From assembly GCA_964607515.1 (NCBI GenBank), contig CAZSKU010000001.1:62968-126967 (forward strand): a stretch of 64,000 nucleotides of DNA, in the 5' to 3' direction. A program made the translations under genes and the position numbers. The notes below the pieces were generated by a model. The model worked only from the letters and a program-made list of their open reading frames with translations. It had not been told where the DNA came from and made no database searches. Shown in pieces: positions 30,138-38,327 of this stretch. The number at the start of each line of letters is the position of its first letter. Position 1 is the stretch's first letter. The DNA comes from an uncultured bacterium. GTDB taxonomy: Bacteria; Fermentibacterota; Fermentibacteria; Fermentibacterales; JCC-6.

Positions 30138-31883
30138 ATGAGTCTTTCCAGTATTCTCTCCAGGCTTAGACCAGCTCCCAGAATGGTGAGCAGGGGGGCA
30201 GGCTCCGTCAGGTTCGTGGACCTGTCCCTGCGGGACGGGCAGCAGTCCCTTCTGGCCACCAGGATGTCCACGCCCCAGGTGATGCGGCTCATGGGGCCCA
30301 TTCTGGACACCGGCGTCACCCTCATGGAGGTGTGGGGAGGAGCCGTCCTGGACAGCGCCATGCGCTTTCTCGACGAAAATCCCTTCGAAAGGCTCAGCCT
30401 CATGAGCGAAAAGGCACGTCCCTACCGGGCGGGGCTTAGAACCCTTTCCCGGGGACAGAACCTTTTCGGGTACGACCCCTATCCCGACGACATTGTAAGG
30501 GACTTCAACACGGAGGCCGTCAAGGCGGGCACTACGGTGATGCGTATCTTCGATGCGCTGAACTACGCCCCGAACTTCAAGGCGGCCCTTGCCGGGGTCA
30601 GGGAGGCTGGGGGCGTCTTCGACGCGGCGGTGTGCTACACCACCGGCACGCCCTACGACACCGGCTACTTCGTGGACAAGGCCCTGGAGCTTCAGGAACT
30701 CGGGGCGGACATGGTCAGCGACAAGGACATGGCCGGGCTGAAGTCGCCCGTGGAGGCATGGGAGTACTACAGCGGCCTCAAGGCCAGGTTAAGGGTTCCG
30801 GTTGTGAGCCACACCCATTGCACCCCCGGATACGGCCACATCTCCGCGGTGATAGCCATGCTGTGCGGGGTGGACATGATAGACACAGCCTTCCTTCCCA
30901 TGGCGGGGGGCAGTTCCCATCCGTCGGCGGAGTTGCTGGGGGTTTTCGCCGAGGTTCTGGGTATGGACACCGGTATGGACCTCTCCGAGAAGGCCCTGGA
31001 ACCCCTTCACAGGGAGATGAAAACGGTTGTGGAGGAAGTCTCCGGAAAGTTCGGGCTCAAGGTGCACAGTTCCACATGGCCCGGCCGGGAGAGGCTGCTT
31101 CCCATGGCCGGGAAGACCCTGGGCCATCTGGCCCGGGGAAGGATTTCCGAGGCTCTGGAAACGGTTCACCGCATGGAGGAGCTCTGCGGCTTTCCCCCGC
31201 CGGACCTGAAGGTCCTCGAAGCCCAGATTCCCGGGGGGATGTACTCCAATTTCGTGAACCAGCTTTCCCGGGACGGCAAGTCCGAGTATCTGGGCCGTGC
31301 GCTGGAGGCGGTTCAGGAAGTCAGGAAGAAGGCCGGATGGTGCCCCCTGGTGACTCCGACCAGCCAGATAGTCGGAGTGAAAGCCTATTTCACGGCCATG
31401 GGGAAGAGCGTGAATCCTGTCCAGTTCGTGAACCTCATCGCCGGGTACTACGGCAAGACCCCGTTTCCCGTGAGCCCCGACTATCGCCTGGAGGTGTGCG
31501 GTTTCAGGGAAGAGAGGGAGTACGATTCCTCGTCCTTCGACCGGGAGATCCCCCTGGCCTCGGGAACCGGTCTGCCCCTGGCGGAAACCTCCCACGAGAA
31601 ACTCCTCTACTACCTCTTCCCCGACAGTTCCGGCAAAGCCTACCTGGAGAAGAAGAGGCAGGCCGAGTGGAGCAGCATGGAGACCGCGGCAAGGGAGGAG
31701 GAGGCCAGGGTTCTTGAGTCCCGCCGGCGGGAGCTTCGGGACAATGCTCTGGTCAACCGGTTCTCCGATGACATGGAAACCCTTTCCGAAAGGCTCTCCA
31801 AGGCCGTCGGAAGTTCCAGGGACGAAAGCGACCCCGACAATCTCGACCAGATAGCGGACCTGGTCTCGGACATCGGGGATTGA
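30138..31883 (+). CDS. Pyruvate/oxaloacetate carboxyltransferase subunit (PycB/OadA/transcarboxylase 5S-like), no biotinyl domain
   Basis: LRDGQQSLLATRM, EVWGGA, RGQNLFGY, RIFDALN, KDMAG, HTH, QIPGGM, LVTPTSQIVG. No EAMKM motif. Confidence 0.88.
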   Translation: MSLSSILSRLRPAPRMVSRGAGSVRFVDLSLRDGQQSLLATRMSTPQVMRLMGPILDTGVTLMEVWGGAVLDSAMRFLDENPFERLSLMSEKARPYRAGLRTLSRGQNLFGYDPYPDDIVRDFNTEAVKAGTTVMRIFDALNYAPNFKAALAGVREAGGVFDAAVCYTTGTPYDTGYFVDKALELQELGADMVSDKDMAGLKSPVEAWEYYSGLKARLRVPVVSHTHCTPGYGHISAVIAMLCGVDMIDTAFLPMAGGSSHPSAELLGVFAEVLGMDTGMDLSEKALEPLHREMKTVVEEVSGKFGLKVHSSTWPGRERLLPMAGKTLGHLARGRISEALETVHRMEELCGFPPPDLKVLEAQIPGGMYSNFVNQLSRDGKSEYLGRALEAVQEVRKKAGWCPLVTPTSQIVGVKAYFTAMGKSVNPVQFVNLIAGYYGKTPFPVSPDYRLEVCGFREEREYDSSSFDREIPLASGTGLPLAETSHEKLLYYLFPDSSGKAYLEKKRQAEWSSMETAAREEEARVLESRRRELRDNALVNRFSDDMETLSERLSKAVGSSRDESDPDNLDQIADLVSDIGD

Positions 31884-31908
31884 CTCCAGCCGTCCCGGTT
31901 CCGATATT
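31880..31908 (+). promoter_or_regulatory. sigma70-type promoter of the metK leader
   Basis: TTGACT, 17 nt spacer, GATATT; would start transcription a few nt before the riboswitch. Confidence 0.6.
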
Positions 31909-31919
31909 CCGGCAGGTAC

Positions 31920-31974
31920 ACGTGGAGTGATTTGAGGCGTATTGCAACCACGTAAAAAAAAGTGCTAAAAAGCC
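31920..31974 (+). ncRNA. SAM-II (SAM_alpha-like) riboswitch aptamer
   Basis: P1 ACGTGG/CCACGT, conserved TGATTT, GTATTGCAA, A-rich L3, GCTAAAAA, and a GGC/GCC pseudoknot; directly upstream of metK. Confidence 0.85.
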
Positions 31975-31988
31975 GCCAGCTGTGCCTC

Positions 31989-32017
31989 AAAGCCGTCGGC
32001 CGACGGCTTTTTGTTTT
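31989..32017 (+). terminator. Intrinsic terminator, expression platform of the riboswitch
   Basis: AAAGCCGTC-GGCC-GACGGCTTT followed by TTGTTTT, just upstream of the metK RBS. Confidence 0.8.
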
Positions 32018-32029
32018 CCGGAGGTAGCC

Positions 32030-33190
32030 ATGAGAAAGCTCTTCACCAGCGAATCCGTATCCGAAGGTCATCCCGACAAGGTCTGCGACCAGATATCCGA
32101 TTCCATCCTCGACGCCCACCTCTCCCTCGACCCCGACAGCCACGTGGCCTGCGAAACCCTGGTCACCACGAATTTCTGCCTTGTGGCCGGTGAAGTGAGG
32201 TCCAACGGCAGCGTGGACTACGAGGACGTGGCCCGGGAGACCATCCGCTCCATCGGTTACGATATTCCGGACATCGGTTTCAGCGCCGACGAGGCGGAGT
32301 ACCAGGTAAGGATCCACGCCCAGTCACAGGATATCAACCAGGGCGTGACACAGAACCAGGGCGCCGGCGATCAGGGCATGATGTTCGGTTTCGCCTGCAC
32401 CGAGACCAGGGCTCTCATGCCCTACCCGATCCATCTGGCCCACCGGTTGCTTGAGAGACTCTCCGGGGAGAGGCGCAAGGGTACCCTTCCCTGGGCCAGA
32501 CCCGACGCCAAGAGCCAGGTCACGGTGCTCTACGAGGGAGACAGACCTGTGGCGATCACCGAAATCCTCATGTCGGTGCATCACGCGGCGGACGCCACCA
32601 ACGACCAGATGAAGCGAGACATGGTGGCAAGGGTCATAGACCCTGTGCTGGAGGTCATCGTGCCGAGCCTCGAATGGTCAGGCAACTTCCTTTACAACCC
32701 GTCGGGCCGGTTCGTCATCGGGGGCCCCAACGGAGACACCGGGCTCACCGGCCGCAAGATCATCGTGGACACCTACGGCGGAGCGGGACGCCACGGAGGC
32801 GGTGCCTTCAGCGGCAAGGACAGCACCAAGGTGGACAGGTCCGCCGCGTACATGGCCCGGTACATCGCCAAAAACCTGGTGGCCGCCGGGGTGGCGGACC
32901 GATGCGAGATACAACTTGCCTACGCCATCGGCTACCCCGATCCCCTCAGCGTAAGGGTTGACACCTTCGGAACCGAGAAGGTGGGGGATCTCAAACTTGT
33001 CGAAAAGGCAGTAAGGGAGCTGTTCCCCCTGAAGCCCTACGGCATCATAAAGGAACTTGGCCTGAAGGCTCCGATATTCCGCAAGACCGCCAGCTTCGGG
33101 CATTTCGGAAGGGCGAACGGCGACGACGGCACATTCCGCTGGGAGAGAACCGACAAGGCCGGCGAGCTGGCGGCCCTTCTTCTGAAGTAG
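32030..33190 (+). CDS. metK: S-adenosylmethionine synthetase
   Basis: FTSESVSEGHPDK, GAGDQG, GGPNGDTGLTGRKIIVDTYGG, GGAFSGKD; GGAGG RBS before ATG 32030. Confidence 0.98.
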   Translation: MRKLFTSESVSEGHPDKVCDQISDSILDAHLSLDPDSHVACETLVTTNFCLVAGEVRSNGSVDYEDVARETIRSIGYDIPDIGFSADEAEYQVRIHAQSQDINQGVTQNQGAGDQGMMFGFACTETRALMPYPIHLAHRLLERLSGERRKGTLPWARPDAKSQVTVLYEGDRPVAITEILMSVHHAADATNDQMKRDMVARVIDPVLEVIVPSLEWSGNFLYNPSGRFVIGGPNGDTGLTGRKIIVDTYGGAGRHGGGAFSGKDSTKVDRSAAYMARYIAKNLVAAGVADRCEIQLAYAIGYPDPLSVRVDTFGTEKVGDLKLVEKAVRELFPLKPYGIIKELGLKAPIFRKTASFGHFGRANGDDGTFRWERTDKAGELAALLLK

Positions 33191-33194
33191 GCGA

Positions 33195-34325
33195 GTGGTC
33201 CTTCTCCCTGTCCTGGCGCTTATTCTGGCCGGGGTCGCCGGGGCAGACGGCCTCGATGCCAGGCTGGAGGCGGCCAGAATCCGACTGGAAGAGCTGCAGA
33301 GCCGTGATTCCGATGCCAGAGAGGTGCTTCTTGCCCTGCATGAGCACCTTGCGGCGGCCAGGGAGTACTACAACGATCTGGTTCTCCGGGAGGCCGGAAT
33401 AACCATGGCCATAGAGCAGCTTGACGGCCGTTGGATGTTGGCTGACTCGGCCCGTTCCATACTCGAGAAGGGGTTGGGGGACTACCTGGTCTACCTCTAC
33501 TCCCAGAGGTCCCGGGTCTCACCGGCCCTGCTGTTCTCCCGGGGGGGCGTCCAGACCCTGGTGCGTCGAAGGGTATACCTGGACCATCTGGCCCGCCGGG
33601 CCGCCATCCAGGTGGAAATCCTCACCCAGAGCGGCGACAGCCTGGCGCACTTCCGGGATTCGCTGGAAACTCTCAGGGAGAGCGTCCGCTCATTGAGAAC
33701 GGAGATGGAAGAGCTTCAGGAGAGGATCTACCGGGAGGAGGAGAGCCAGGCCCTTCTCAGGATGACCCTTCGGGAGGAGATCTCGGCGGCCGCGGAGTCT
33801 GCCGCGGTCCTCGAGGCCCAGAGACGGGAACTATCCGCCCTGGTGGCGGATCTGCGGGTTACCTCCCAGGGCTCCGGGGGAACCGCGGTCGTGCCGGTTC
33901 AACCCGGAGGGGATTCCTACTTCGAGAGGATGCGGGGCGCCCTGTCATGGCCCGGCAGAGGGTCGGTGGTCAGGCGTTTCGGAGTCGAGAGGGATCCGAT
34001 CTACGGCACGGAAACCGTCTGCGACGGAGTAAGCGTGGCCACGGCGCCGGGGGAGACGGTCCGAGCGCTGGCCGGCGGGTCCGTGGTCTTCTCACGGGAG
34101 TTCATGAGTCTGGGGCGCATGGTGGTTCTGGACCATCGGGACGGCTGGTATTCGGTATACGGCCACCTGGGAAACCTGCAGGTGGCCAGGGGCGACTCAG
34201 TGAGCCAGGGGGGCGCTCTGGGAGTGGCCGGACCGTTGCCCGGGGGGAGACCGGGGTACTACCTGGAAATGCGAAGAGGAGCCGAACCTGTGGATCCCAT
34301 GGCCTATCTGGAGCCTCCGCGATGA
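33195..34325 (+). CDS. EnvC-like murein hydrolase activator (coiled coil plus degenerate M23)
   Basis: Signal peptide, long coiled coil, LSWP..G.V...FG, C-terminal M23-like domain in which only YGHL remains of the zinc ligands. Confidence 0.8.
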   Translation: MVLLPVLALILAGVAGADGLDARLEAARIRLEELQSRDSDAREVLLALHEHLAAAREYYNDLVLREAGITMAIEQLDGRWMLADSARSILEKGLGDYLVYLYSQRSRVSPALLFSRGGVQTLVRRRVYLDHLARRAAIQVEILTQSGDSLAHFRDSLETLRESVRSLRTEMEELQERIYREEESQALLRMTLREEISAAAESAAVLEAQRRELSALVADLRVTSQGSGGTAVVPVQPGGDSYFERMRGALSWPGRGSVVRRFGVERDPIYGTETVCDGVSVATAPGETVRALAGGSVVFSREFMSLGRMVVLDHRDGWYSVYGHLGNLQVARGDSVSQGGALGVAGPLPGGRPGYYLEMRRGAEPVDPMAYLEPPR

Positions 34326-35380
34326 AGCCGTTCTCCGGGATTACCGGCCAGGAGGCGGCTCGAACCCTGCTGACCGCCGCGGTGGAGGCGGGCAGGCTGG
34401 CCCACGCCTACCTGCTGGCGGGTCCAGAAGGGAGCGGCCGGCTCTCCATGGCCCTGGACCTGGCGGCCTGCATGGTCTGCCCCGAACAGGAGGCGGGTTT
34501 CTGCGGTGGCTGCCGGCACTGTGCCAGGATCTTCGCCATGAACCACCCGGACGTGCGGTTCACGATTCCCAGAACCGCCCAGGTGACACCCGAGGAGGAG
34601 GCCGCGCTGATGGAGGCCAGGGCTGCCGACGGTATCACGCCCCTGCGCTTTCCCGGCAACACAGGGATAGGCATAGGCCAGATCCGGGAGATCGAAGCCC
34701 GGCTCTCCAGGAAGTCCTTCGAGGGCAGAGGGCATGTGGAGATTATCCTGGATGCCCATCTGATGAGGCGCGAAGCGGCGAACGCCCTGTTGAAGACTCT
34801 CGAAGAGCCTCCGGAGAGCACCCTGCTGATCCTCACCACCTCGTACCTGTCGGGCATACTGCCCACCGTGAGGTCCAGGGCCCACTGTGTGAGGCTGGGC
34901 TCACTGGATCCCGGCCAGGTGGAAAGGATCATTCTTCAGCGCACCTCCCTGGACCCCGCGGCGGCCCGGGAGCTATCCCTGGCCAGCGGCGGCAGCCCCG
35001 GCAGGGCCCTGGCGGTTGCGGCGCGATGGGAAGGCGGCGGCGGGAGCCGGGCCCTGGGGCTGCTTCAGTCCCTGGCGGAAACCCTCGACCAGGGAGAACT
35101 GCTCGAAACTGCCGTCGGGCTCGCCCGGGAGCTGGGCAGGGACGGTCTGCTGGAACTTTGCGACGATGTGGTGAGCGCAGCGCAGGACATCCGCAGAGTC
35201 CTTGCCGGAAGGGCTCCGGTGAGCCACGGGGGCCTTTCCACATGCTATTTTACGGATGTTTTTCTGGAACGGGTGCAGGAGAGCTTCCGCAAGTGCGGGG
35301 GCAGGCTCCGGGCGAATGTTTCCCCTGCCATGGCCCTGGAGGCGGCGGTGCTGTCCCTGGGCGGGAATGGAAATAAATGA
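34322..35380 (+). CDS. holB: DNA polymerase III subunit delta'
   Basis: HAYLLAGPEGSG, C..C..C zinc site, HPD, IGQIREI, AANALLKTLEEPP, ILPTVRSR. Confidence 0.93.
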   Translation: MKPFSGITGQEAARTLLTAAVEAGRLAHAYLLAGPEGSGRLSMALDLAACMVCPEQEAGFCGGCRHCARIFAMNHPDVRFTIPRTAQVTPEEEAALMEARAADGITPLRFPGNTGIGIGQIREIEARLSRKSFEGRGHVEIILDAHLMRREAANALLKTLEEPPESTLLILTTSYLSGILPTVRSRAHCVRLGSLDPGQVERIILQRTSLDPAAARELSLASGGSPGRALAVAARWEGGGGSRALGLLQSLAETLDQGELLETAVGLARELGRDGLLELCDDVVSAAQDIRRVLAGRAPVSHGGLSTCYFTDVFLERVQESFRKCGGRLRANVSPAMALEAAVLSLGGNGNK

Positions 35381-36333
35381 CCGAGCAATCAGCCCTGGAA
35401 GTGCTTCTTGTGGTCTTCCGGGCCGGCAGGAAGGGCTTTTTCCGGAACAACGGCCCCCTCCCGGTGGACAACGGAGCCCTGGTGATCCTCGATGTGGAGC
35501 GCGGGGTGGACCTGGGCAGGGTTCTTGCCAAGCTGCCCCCCGATGAGGAGCTTCTTCAGCAGTGCGCCGGCGATTACCTCCGGGAGGCTTCTCCTGAGGA
35601 CCGGGAGCAGGCGGCGGACAACGGGGAGTTTCAGCAGGAGGTGCTCCGTTACTGCCGGGAGCGGATAGATTCCAGGAAGCTGGACATGAAACTTACCGGT
35701 TGCGAAACCCAGCTGGACAGGAACCGGATACGCATATACTTCACCGCTGATCAGCGGACCGATTTCCGGGGCCTGGTGCGGGACCTGGCGGCGAACTACA
35801 GGGCCCGGATCGAGATGAGGCAGATCGGAATCCGGGACGACGCCCGGCACAAGGGGGGGTTGGGGATATGCGGCCGGGAGCTGTGCTGTTCAAGCTTTCT
35901 GGACGACTTCCAGTCGGTCACCCTGAAGATGGTTCGAACCCAGAACCTTTCCCTGAATCCGTCCAAGGTTTCGGGCACCTGTGGAAGGCTCATGTGCTGC
36001 CTGGCGTACGAGGCCGAGTTCTACCAGCAGGCCCAGAGAAACTACCCGCAGCCCGGTCAGACCGTGAACCTCGTGGGATCGCCCTGGGAGGTGGCCGCCG
36101 CGGACATCTTCCACGAAACGGTGACGGTGAGGAAGGAGGGTGCGGCGGAAACCGAAACCCTCACCCTGGAGGAATTCGACCGGAGAAAAGGCATGGACAG
36201 ACCATCGCCTCCGCCGAAACTCGAAATCAGGCCCGATGAACCGGAAAAGGCTCCGGAAGCCTCCGAAGCCTCCAGGAGACGCCGCCGTCGAAGGCGAAGG
36301 CCTGCGGGCACCGACAAGGAAAGGACCCGGTGA
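35377..36333 (+). CDS. ricT: PSP1/RicT (YaaT) family protein
   Basis: YFTADQRTDFRGLVRDLA, RIEMRQIG.RD, GICGRELCC, KVSGTCGRLMCCL.YE; in holB-ricT-metG order. Confidence 0.9.
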   Translation: MTEQSALEVLLVVFRAGRKGFFRNNGPLPVDNGALVILDVERGVDLGRVLAKLPPDEELLQQCAGDYLREASPEDREQAADNGEFQQEVLRYCRERIDSRKLDMKLTGCETQLDRNRIRIYFTADQRTDFRGLVRDLAANYRARIEMRQIGIRDDARHKGGLGICGRELCCSSFLDDFQSVTLKMVRTQNLSLNPSKVSGTCGRLMCCLAYEAEFYQQAQRNYPQPGQTVNLVGSPWEVAAADIFHETVTVRKEGAAETETLTLEEFDRRKGMDRPSPPPKLEIRPDEPEKAPEASEASRRRRRRRRRPAGTDKERTR

Positions 36334-38327
36334 AGACAATGGCCCGGTACATGGTTACCAGCGCTCTTCCATACGCCAACGGCCCCTCCCACCTGGGCCA
36401 CCTCGCCGGAGCCTACCTGCCGGCGGACATCTACGTGAGATATCTGAAGATGAAGGGCCATGACGTGGTCTACGCCTGCGGTACCGATGAACACGGTGTG
36501 CCCATCACCATCACCGCCGAGAAGCTGGGGCTCACACCGGCGGAAACCGTGGACAGGTTTCACGGAGTCATAAGGAAGGATTTCCAGGATTTCGGCATCT
36601 CATTCTCCAACTTCTCCCGCACCACGACGCCGGAACACCGGGATTTCGCCCAGTCGGTGTTCCTGGATCTGCTTCGCCGGGGGTACATCGAGCCCCGTTC
36701 CATGAAGCAGCTGTACTGCTCAAGTTGCGAGAGATTTCTGCCCGACAGGTACATAGGAGGAACCTGCCCCAAGTGCGGTTCCACCGGCGCCCGGGGGGAC
36801 CAGTGCGAGAGCTGCGGCACCTGGATCGAGCCGCTGGAACTCCTGGAACCCAGGTGCAGCATCTGCGGAAACACCCCGAAGGTCCGGGAGACCATGCACT
36901 GGTTCCTCATGCTCGATCGGTTCCAGGAGTGGATGACGGAGTGGCTCGAATCCCGGGAGAACTGGAAGGACAACGTGCTGAATTACTGCCGGGGCTGGCT
37001 CAAGGACGGTCTTCGGGAGAGGGCGATCACCAGGGATCTTGACTGGGGAGTGCCGGTTCCCCTGCCCGAAGCCCGGGGCAAGGTTCTCTACGTCTGGTTC
37101 GAAGCCCTTCTGGGCTACATCAGCAGCACCCGGGAGTACTTCCGGGAAAAGGGCGATCCGGAGGGATGGAAAAGGTACTGGCAGGATCCGGAAACAAGGC
37201 TGGTCCACTTCATCGGCAAGGACAACATAGTTTTCCATTGCATCATAGAACCGGCGATACTCCGGGGGGTCGGCGGGTACAACCTGCCCTGGAACGTGCC
37301 GGCCAACGAGTTTTTGAACATACAGGGGCAGAAGTTCAGCACCAGCCGGGGCACCGCCGTATGGTTGAGGGACTACCTCGACCGCTTTCCCGCTGACCCC
37401 ATGCGGTACGCCCTGGCGGTGAACGCCCCGGAAACCCGGGACACTGACTTCACCTGGGACGAATTCAGGGCCAGGAACAACGAACTGGCCGATGTGCTGG
37501 GGAATTTCGTGAACAGGACGGTGAGTTTCGCCGCAGGCAAGCTCGGGGGAAGGGTGCCGGAGGGAGAACCTTCTCCGGAGCTGCTGGAAACAGCCGCCCG
37601 GGGGGCAACCCAGGTGGGCGACCTGATAGAGAGATTCAGGTTCAAGCTGGCGGCGTCCGCAGCCATGGACATCGCCCGGGAGGGAAACAGGTTCTTCGAC
37701 GCGGTCCAACCCTGGAAGACCGCGAAGACCGACCCTGTTGCCTGCCGCCGGGACCTGGCGGGATGCCTGAACCTTTGCGCAGCCCTGCAGGTGATATTCC
37801 ATCCCTTCCTGCCCTTCACCTCCGGAAAGATCGGGTCCATGCTGGGAACCGGGGAACTCCGGTGGGATTCCGCCTCCCGCAGGATCCTGGAGCCCGGCAG
37901 CCCCCTGGGATCTCCGGAGATCCTGTTCACGAAGCTGGAGGACGGTTTCCAGAAGGTTTTCGAGAAGGCGGTCAACCCCTCGCCGGTCTCCGAGGAGAAG
38001 CCCGTGGTGGAGTTTGACGATTTCGCCAGACTCGACCTCAGGGTGGGCAGGGTTCTGTCGGTGAACCCTGTGGCCGGAGCGGACAAGCTCTACCGGCTTA
38101 TGGTTGACGTGGGCGAGGAAGTTCCCAGGCAGGTGGTGGCGGGGCTTCGACAGCACTACCCCGAGGAGGCGCTGCTGGGTGCCATGGTGGTGGTGGTGGC
38201 GAACCTGAAGCCGGTCGTTCTTCGGGGTACCGAGAGCCGGGGCATGATTCTGGCCAGCGACGGAGCCGGCGGGGTGAAACTCCTGGCGCCTGAGCCCGGA
38301 GCTGCTCCCGGCGACAGGGTTCGGTGA
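36330..38327 (+). CDS. metG: Methionine--tRNA ligase with C-terminal tRNA-binding domain
   Basis: SALPYANGPSHLGH, GTDEHG, zinc knuckles, IGKDN, KFSTSRG, DFARLDLRVG..ADKL. Confidence 0.97.
   Translation: MKTMARYMVTSALPYANGPSHLGHLAGAYLPADIYVRYLKMKGHDVVYACGTDEHGVPITITAEKLGLTPAETVDRFHGVIRKDFQDFGISFSNFSRTTTPEHRDFAQSVFLDLLRRGYIEPRSMKQLYCSSCERFLPDRYIGGTCPKCGSTGARGDQCESCGTWIEPLELLEPRCSICGNTPKVRETMHWFLMLDRFQEWMTEWLESRENWKDNVLNYCRGWLKDGLRERAITRDLDWGVPVPLPEARGKVLYVWFEALLGYISSTREYFREKGDPEGWKRYWQDPETRLVHFIGKDNIVFHCIIEPAILRGVGGYNLPWNVPANEFLNIQGQKFSTSRGTAVWLRDYLDRFPADPMRYALAVNAPETRDTDFTWDEFRARNNELADVLGNFVNRTVSFAAGKLGGRVPEGEPSPELLETAARGATQVGDLIERFRFKLAASAAMDIAREGNRFFDAVQPWKTAKTDPVACRRDLAGCLNLCAALQVIFHPFLPFTSGKIGSMLGTGELRWDSASRRILEPGSPLGSPEILFTKLEDGFQKVFEKAVNPSPVSEEKPVVEFDDFARLDLRVGRVLSVNPVAGADKLYRLMVDVGEEVPRQVVAGLRQHYPEEALLGAMVVVVANLKPVVLRGTESRGMILASDGAGGVKLLAPEPGAAPGDRVR

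Follow-up and report, generated by a model that had tools for sequence, protein, structure and literature searches.

How is metK, the S-adenosylmethionine (SAM) synthetase gene, controlled in the uncultured bacterium whose contig CAZSKU010000001.1 provided the 64,000 nucleotides analysed here (the window)? A first reading, made from the sequence alone, had proposed that metK is preceded by a SAM-II pseudoknot aptamer and, behind it, an intrinsic terminator, and that SAM shuts the gene off. We read positions 31700-32300 again, and all strings and coordinates of this sequence-only reading proved exact to the base. Its core holds as far as computation reaches, given a covariance model match, the identity of metK and compensatory changes among relatives. 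In our judgement it is likely that metK, and probably also the genes that follow it, are controlled by a riboswitch of the SAM-II class, a variant of RF01726, acting most likely as a transcriptional OFF switch.

A SAM-II aptamer upstream of metK

Both strands of the window were compared to 4227 Rfam families. RF01726, the SAM-II "long loop" family, matched 31916-31978 on the + strand over the full model (1-60), with 45.1 bits for a gathering score of 44 and an E value of 2.2e-5. This was the sole match in the 64 kb, where no tRNA, rRNA or other Rfam family was found at gathering score. A permissive scan of 31800-32100 gave 32.6 bits for the classical SAM-II model, RF00521, which is below its gathering score of 36; in the same 301 nt, neither SAM-V (RF01826) nor any other SAM class or family matched, even at E values up to 10. 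The covariance models therefore uphold the assignment made by the sequence-only reading through RF01726, and not through RF00521 or SAM-V. The window falls under the RF00521 threshold mainly because its loop L1 is 2 nt longer and its helix P2a has just 3 bp (parts of the aptamer are listed in Table 1).

Every strongly conserved position of the RF01726 consensus is present in the window aptamer, and the core nucleotides GAUUUG (L1), UUGCA, the A-rich L3 and GCUAAA are aligned to upper-case consensus positions. In P2, TTGC (31942-45) pairs with GC(T)AA (31964-68), leaving a bulged U, and GGC (31936-38) with GCC (31972-74). Gilbert et al. reportedly found in 2008 that L1 GAUUUG lines the major groove of P2b in solved SAM-II structures.

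The aptamer lies on the + strand, 52 nt upstream of metK, and its placement is the same in all relatives. A consensus scan of 31500-32300 found exactly one terminator, that of the metK leader, and the site at 31880-31908 is the only promoter-like one in this interval, for 0.1 expected from shuffles. The transcript is expected to start at ~31914-17, a few nt 5′ of P1.

Conservation and covariation among related leaders

The host belongs to Candidatus Fermentibacteraceae, in the phylum Candidatus Fermentibacterota of the FCB group. Among named organisms, the closest MetK proteins (70-75% identity) come from Candidatus Fermentibacteria, Sabulitectum and Aegiribacteria, and the MetK cluster at 88% identity contains an NCBI protein named Candidatus Fermentibacteraceae bacterium. 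Metagenomes from sludge, biogas fermenters and bioreactors contain the window sequence, and its own metK locus was found again in 7 assembly contigs. The same leader was present upstream of metK in 10 of the 10 MetK homologue loci examined (70-97% identical). When a genome collection was scanned with MetK, the matches listed included proteins of other phyla, 55-59% identical, and none of these had the motif.

When metagenomes were searched for the aptamer core TGATTTGRGGYRTATTGCA, 104 stretches were returned. In somewhat more than half of them, a GCTAAA tail stands at the proper spacing; the remainder look like chance matches. Four groups could be distinguished among the aptamer-bearing stretches: 29 compact leaders of the window type, a second metK lineage, a soil group, and classical SAM-II. 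Two alignments were made, one with the 29 distinct window-type leaders and one with 48 aptamers from several lineages. L1 GAUUUG is invariant in both, part of it being fixed by the metagenome search pattern. The promoter is conserved as well, since 21 of the 29 leaders have TTGAC-16/18-TAnnnT ending 13-22 nt before TGATTTG.

Together, P1, P2 and the terminator were 95% paired in the 29 leaders, against 25-60% when the partner was slid. Across the 48 aptamers, P1 and P2 were 96% paired (91.7% for the P1 stem alone). The outermost conserved P1 pair (columns 4-35) was found among the 48 aptamers as CG 24 times, AU 9, UA 5, GC 2, UG 2 and GU 1, which makes four Watson-Crick pair types at one position; one P1 pair of the 29 leaders was CG in 20, UA in 5 and UG in 2. 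P2 cells were 98-100% paired, with CG 29, UG 14 and UA 3 at a P2a position (columns 21-56), and P2b is invariant, hence uninformative for covariation. The terminator stem was 96% paired in the 29 leaders, columns 82-92 being CG in 15 and UA in 13, and columns 78-96 GC in 19, AU in 6 and GU in 4; a U-run follows the stem in all leaders except L174 (28/29). The covariation among relatives by which the sequence-only reading wished to be judged is thus found as compensatory changes in both aptamer and terminator.

A single match at gathering level, together with an arrangement that recurs with covariation in 29 distinct leaders, is more than chance would give. Leaders of the Fermentibacteria type stand at the edge of both Rfam models, and some of those from relatives pass RF00521 too; they are clearly inside the SAM-II class. 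Judged from these alignments, a SAM-II switch appears to be a clade-wide regulator of metK in Candidatus Fermentibacterota.

The second metK lineage (8 leaders: L103, L104, L118, L135, L139, L161, L167 and L199) has CGCGG/CCGCG as P1 and a different platform, in which three elements come after the aptamer: a first hairpin, which has a U-run in some leaders, then a small hairpin GUCUCCUCAAAGAC, then a strong terminator. One representative, L118, was reported by neither RF01726 nor RF00521 at E 0.1. In the soil group (L102, L129, L136, L140, L142, L146, L159, L171 and others), near-identical SAM-II aptamers with P1 AGTGG/CCACT stand 5′ of a non-metK gene starting with GTGTCTCATGAGCAAC, in a leader of ~150 nt without obvious terminator. 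Within this leader, CCACTG repeats the P1 3′ strand, and CCCCG is the complement of the tail CGGGG. Two SAM-II aptamers were seen in tandem on the + strand of L117 (201-365), one matching RF00521 at 201-274 (36.2 bits) and the other RF01726 at 304-365 (49.2 bits).

Table 1. Features of the metK leader and their positions in the window
Feature	Position	Strand	Remarks
Sigma-70-like promoter, TTGACT-17-GATATT	31880-31908	+	-35 box 31880-85, -10 box 31903-08
SAM-II aptamer	31916-31978	+	RF01726 match
P1 5′ strand, ACGTGG	31920-31925	+	pairs with 31948-53; conserved 5 bp from 31921-25
L1, AGTGATTTGA	31926-31935	+	matches consensus GAUUUGA
Subparts of L1: AG, TGATTT, GAGGC	31928-33 (TGATTT), 31934-38 (GAGGC)	+	AG comes first; GAGGC extends past L1
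Helix X 5′ strand, TTTGAGGC	31931-31938	+	L1 and P2a 5′ strand
Pseudoknot P2 5′ strand	31936-31945	+	P2a GGC 31936-38, P2b TTGC 31942-45
TATTGCAA	31940-47	+	after the G that follows GAGGC, before the P1 3′ strand
P1 3′ strand, CCACGT	31948-31953	+	pairs with 31920-25
A-rich L3	31954-31963	+	A8 (31954-61), then GT; matches consensus AAAAAAAU
P2 3′ strand (tail), GCTAAAAAGCCG	31964-31975	+	includes GCTAAAAA 31964-71 and GCC 31972-74
Helix X 3′ strand, GCCTCAAA	31984-31991	+	overlaps three basal A:T pairs of the terminator
Intrinsic terminator, stem AAAGCCGTC / GACGGCTTT	31989-32017	+	arms 31989-97 / 32002-10, 9 bp, loop GGCC, TTGTTTT to 32017
Candidate antiterminator 3′ strand, CGGCTTTTT	32004-32012	+	common to the terminator 3′ arm; partner 31967-75
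Shine-Dalgarno GGAGG and metK start codon	32020-32032	+	GGAGG 32020-24, ATG 32030-32
metK, S-adenosylmethionine synthetase, 386 amino acids	32030-33190	+	three S-AdoMet synthetase Pfam domains

An alternative helix for the pseudoknot 5′ strand

The sequence-only reading had pointed to a second possible pairing, of 31931-38 with 31984-91. The two strands are exact complements, and the alternative helix that they form, called helix X below, covaries. It is 7-9 bp long in all 29 leaders, where 95.7% of the cells are paired in register against 26-56% when slid. Its varying pair is C-G in 17 leaders, T-A in 8 and T.G in 4, and never C.A (Fisher p 1.2e-4 for the change from C-G to T-A, uncorrected for shared ancestry). 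The 3′ strand, CCUCAAA, is also present in 8 of 8 leaders of the second metK lineage, which show it in the loop of their small hairpin. During transcription of the window, helix X enters the predicted lowest-energy fold once 31990-95 have been transcribed. Because it is built from L1 and the P2a 5′ strand, it excludes the SAM-bound pseudoknot.

The available parts of two SAM-II papers (PMC1273637, PMC9373788) do not mention a covarying decoy helix for the pseudoknot 5′ strand. The way in which SAM-II pseudoknots are coupled to terminators may partly be explained by helix X. We put forward, as a tentative idea only, that GCCUCAAA (31984-91) serves as a decoy dedicated to the pseudoknot 5′ strand, covarying with it and kept in at least two lineages with different platforms, and that this decoy may act twice: without SAM, it would dismantle the aptamer and free the tail against the terminator, and with SAM, once released, it would mask the Shine-Dalgarno sequence. 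If true, this double-acting decoy would provide, for the first time, a comparative model of the way SAM-II aptamers act on terminators.

From aptamer to terminator

How the aptamer would act on metK, that is, SAM binding, the direction of regulation, the SAM-free pairing blocking the terminator and a translational layer, is what we infer in the following scheme. Transcription would start a few bases 5′ of P1. With SAM in place during the passage of the polymerase over the ~30 nt past the aptamer, the tail GCUAAAAAGCC would be locked in P2 against GGC...UUGC and the UUU strand of L1, the hairpin 31989-32010 would form ahead of the U-run, and the transcript would end at ~32014-19, before the ribosome-binding site. 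When SAM is absent, the nascent GCCUCAAA would capture UUUGAGGC (31931-38) to form helix X, which would dismantle the binding pocket and free the tail. Once free, this tail would, together with the linker (AAAAAGCCG and, further on, GCUG), hold the 3′ arm of the terminator (CGGCUUUUU) or its 5′ arm, with the P1 5′ strand also competing for the terminator arms in some relatives. The terminator would be delayed, and the polymerase would read into metK. Should a read-through RNA later bind SAM, the freed CCUC could pair with the Shine-Dalgarno GGAGG, so that a weaker second layer of repression is possible.

The antiterminator of the sequence-only reading consisted of the tail (31967-75) paired with the terminator 3′ arm (32004-12). 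AAAAAGCCG and CGGCTTTTT are exact complements, the complementarity is kept in 86.5% of the cells of the 29 leaders, against 38-66% when slid, and in the window the helix reaches ~15 bp. P1 with this antiterminator is the predicted lowest-energy fold at transcript lengths 32012-32020 (-27.6 to -29.2 kcal/mol), the antiterminator also being found at full length, and the competing fold with helix X and the terminator is at -26.2 kcal/mol at 32010. Antiterminator and terminator are thus predicted to be near-isoenergetic in the window, with a balance that moves with the assumed 5′ end. In most relatives, the terminator outcompetes the helix between tail and 3′ arm in equilibrium folding. The antiterminator therefore stands as a complementary, conserved and, in the window, energetically plausible pairing; compensatory support for it within the lineage does not. 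The second metK lineage has ACC:GGU in place of GCC:GGC, a joint change of its tail and of the 3′ arm of its first hairpin.

Another pairing, of tail and linker with the terminator 5′ arm (GCCGCCAGCU with AGCCGUCGGC), was seen at 32000-05. It is predicted in some clades only, is absent where the arm is CCGCCCC, and was rejected as a general mechanism.

Several points weigh against a SAM-controlled terminator as proposed here. The RF01726 score is only 1 bit over threshold, and the scores of relatives spread from 37 to 47 bits. The metatranscriptomes consist of assembled contigs, which are uninformative on the 5′ and 3′ ends of transcripts. No compensatory change was seen in the helix between tail and 3′ arm in the 29 leaders, because the tail is fixed by the aptamer, and this helix has to compete with an adjacent, more stable hairpin. 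Nor can helix X alone be the antiterminator, because it overlaps just three basal pairs of the terminator and leaves a 6-bp GC stem abutting the U-run. By equilibrium pseudoknot-free folding of the 29 leaders, the mean probability of the terminator was 0.85-0.92 free and 0.93 bound, and such nested folding predicted no SAM-free structure that robustly excludes the terminator clade-wide. It follows that the switch must be kinetic, or use pseudoknots beyond nested folding. The whole leader folds no better than shuffles (z -0.26). On the modelling side, nested thermodynamics neither proves nor disproves the switch.

Other ways of reading the leader

A classical antiterminator, with the same aptamer and the same OFF logic, is a possibility to which we give limited credit. 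GCCUCAAA and the terminator 5′ arm (31984-32000) would together be a decoy for the 5′ half of the aptamer: in an extension of helix X, CGUGG of the P1 5′ strand would pair with CC-G-N-CG of the terminator 5′ arm, so that this arm would be occupied before the 3′ arm emerges, and the helix between tail and 3′ arm would be incidental. Before the 3′ arm is made, this extended helix is indeed in the lowest-energy folds of L095, L096, L120, L130, L154, L162, L165, L168, L172, L176 and L177, but in the window it is weak (GG:CC, U.G, a bulge, GC:CG) and stays outside the lowest-energy fold; for full-length leaders, all equilibrium predictions have the terminator in its place. Sequence conservation of the terminator 5′ arm exceeds the needs of a hairpin (CCG-Y-CG, four invariant positions), and in unrelated leaders this arm again matches the local P1 5′ strand, as CAGGGU:ACCCUG in L123 and CGCGGG:CCCG(A)CG in the second lineage. 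However, the predicted partners of the 5′ arm vary from clade to clade, and the P1 5′ strand is nearly unvarying, so that covariation of the extended helix is uninformative.

It seems unlikely that the hairpin and U-run are a constitutive attenuator, or merely structural, with SAM control exerted mainly on translation. Freed GCCUC (31984-88) would then pair with GGAGG (32020-24), and helix X would hold GCCUC when SAM is lacking. The full-length fold of the window does have GCUGUGCCUC paired with GAGGUAGC around the terminator, and the terminator is predicted in both the free and the bound state. For the SAM-II leader of S. meliloti metA, PMC9373788 describes a terminator that is not predicted to respond to SAM. 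Constraining the aptamer raised the mean pairing probability of the Shine-Dalgarno sequence with the helix X 3′ strand from 0.08 to 0.29, with more than 0.4 in 11 of the 29 leaders, window included; yet the accessibility of the Shine-Dalgarno sequence barely shifted, from 0.37 to 0.28, and its pairing was not predicted in the other leaders (18/29). Moreover, helix X combined with any Shine-Dalgarno sequence entails CCUC:GAGG complementarity, which is thus no independent evidence, and the pairs flanking CCUC:GAGG are lost even in L086, the closest relative. A conserved, covarying GC-rich stem with a U-run (28/29) directly after a SAM aptamer is, in contrast, the signature of regulated termination.

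That an ordinary intergenic region with an unrelated terminator would resemble the SAM-II model by chance, as a score barely over the RF01726 threshold and under that of RF00521 might suggest, is hardly credible when all relatives examined, with MetK identity down to 70%, have the aptamer at the same site before metK, when P1, P2 and the terminator show compensatory changes, and when some relatives pass both Rfam models.

Genes and transcripts around the switch

Downstream of metK are genes for an M23 peptidase, holB, a PSP1-domain gene and metG, separated by a 4-nt gap, then by 4-nt overlaps (32030-38327). Given this tight packing from metK to metG, the riboswitch may head an operon of five genes, among them those for a DNA polymerase III subunit and methionyl-tRNA synthetase.

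On the upstream side, the TGA stop (31881-83) of a PYC_OADA carboxylase gene overlaps the -35 box TTGACT, and no terminator separates this gene from the riboswitch. One metatranscriptome contig of 385 nt (31846-32230, depth 3.3) crosses the junction between the two. With such a contig and no terminator in between, read-through from upstream is possible. In the sludge metatranscriptomes X26 and X28, contigs of 32-33 nt were found on the P1 hairpin only (31921-52), at a word depth of 26-38. These probably result from the collapse of many related strains sharing the core, or could be abundant short leader RNAs.

Comparison with known systems

With this locus, the range over which SAM-II is known grows to include Candidatus Fermentibacterota, an uncultured anaerobic-digester phylum. 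As a standard Rfam scan detects the riboswitch, its annotation is routine. The natural leader is compact, with aptamer, decoy helix, terminator and ribosome-binding site closely interleaved within ~100 nt, and it comes in 29 variants, which makes it a convenient system for studying the coupling of SAM-II pseudoknots to termination, still poorly understood.

SAM-V riboswitches have a similar pseudoknot and a triplex binding site, and also control methionine and SAM genes. They are known from marine genomes of the Pelagibacter type and act on translation.

The closest known relatives of the window aptamer are the insertion-tolerant SAM-II variants from Bacteroidetes and marine sequences for which RF01726 was introduced (Weinberg et al. 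2010, PMC2864571). It shares with them P1, the length of L1 (GGA-nn-GAUUUGA), UUGCAACC, the A-rich L3 and the GCUAAA tail, and its host is in the same FCB group as Bacteroidetes. It differs by a short loop that lacks a long insert and has just 2 nt inserted with respect to the model, and by one non-standard pair in the inner 3-bp loop helix of the model. The window promoter is sigma-70-like, whereas the alignment note of these authors cites the Bacteroidetes UAnnUUUG type, and the host phylum is Candidatus Fermentibacterota. Relative to RF00521, and to it only, L1 has the 2-nt insertion named by the sequence-only reading; the RF01726 consensus (GaGGAaaGAUUUGA) already has both positions, so that the insertion is no novelty. 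Its other remark, that the host lineage is unusual, is right in that a candidate phylum is concerned, and no riboswitch report for Fermentibacter was found in the literature searched, but the phylum belongs to the FCB group, beside the Bacteroidota where RF01726 was defined.

With classical SAM-II (RF00521; Corbino et al. 2005, PMC1273637) and the S. meliloti metZ leader (PMC9373788), the window leader shares an H-type pseudoknot core, a promoter a few nt before P1, a terminator between P2 and the open reading frame, a methionine or SAM gene and, most likely, an OFF logic. A transcriptional SAM-II is therefore not unusual, contrary to the initial suggestion: a terminator after the aptamer is the usual arrangement in the literature, PMC1273637 and PMC2258182 give the succession promoter, aptamer and terminator as typical of SAM-II, and SAM-dependent termination is predicted for S. 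meliloti metZ in PMC9373788. In 2007, PMC2258182 called the link between SAM-II aptamer and terminator experimentally unestablished, and in 2022 no antiterminator was predictable for S. meliloti metA (PMC9373788). Unlike in classical SAM-II, the gene controlled in the window is metK, and not metA, metX or metZ. What is new is modest, namely the host phylum for SAM-II and the clade-wide conservation of the element before metK.

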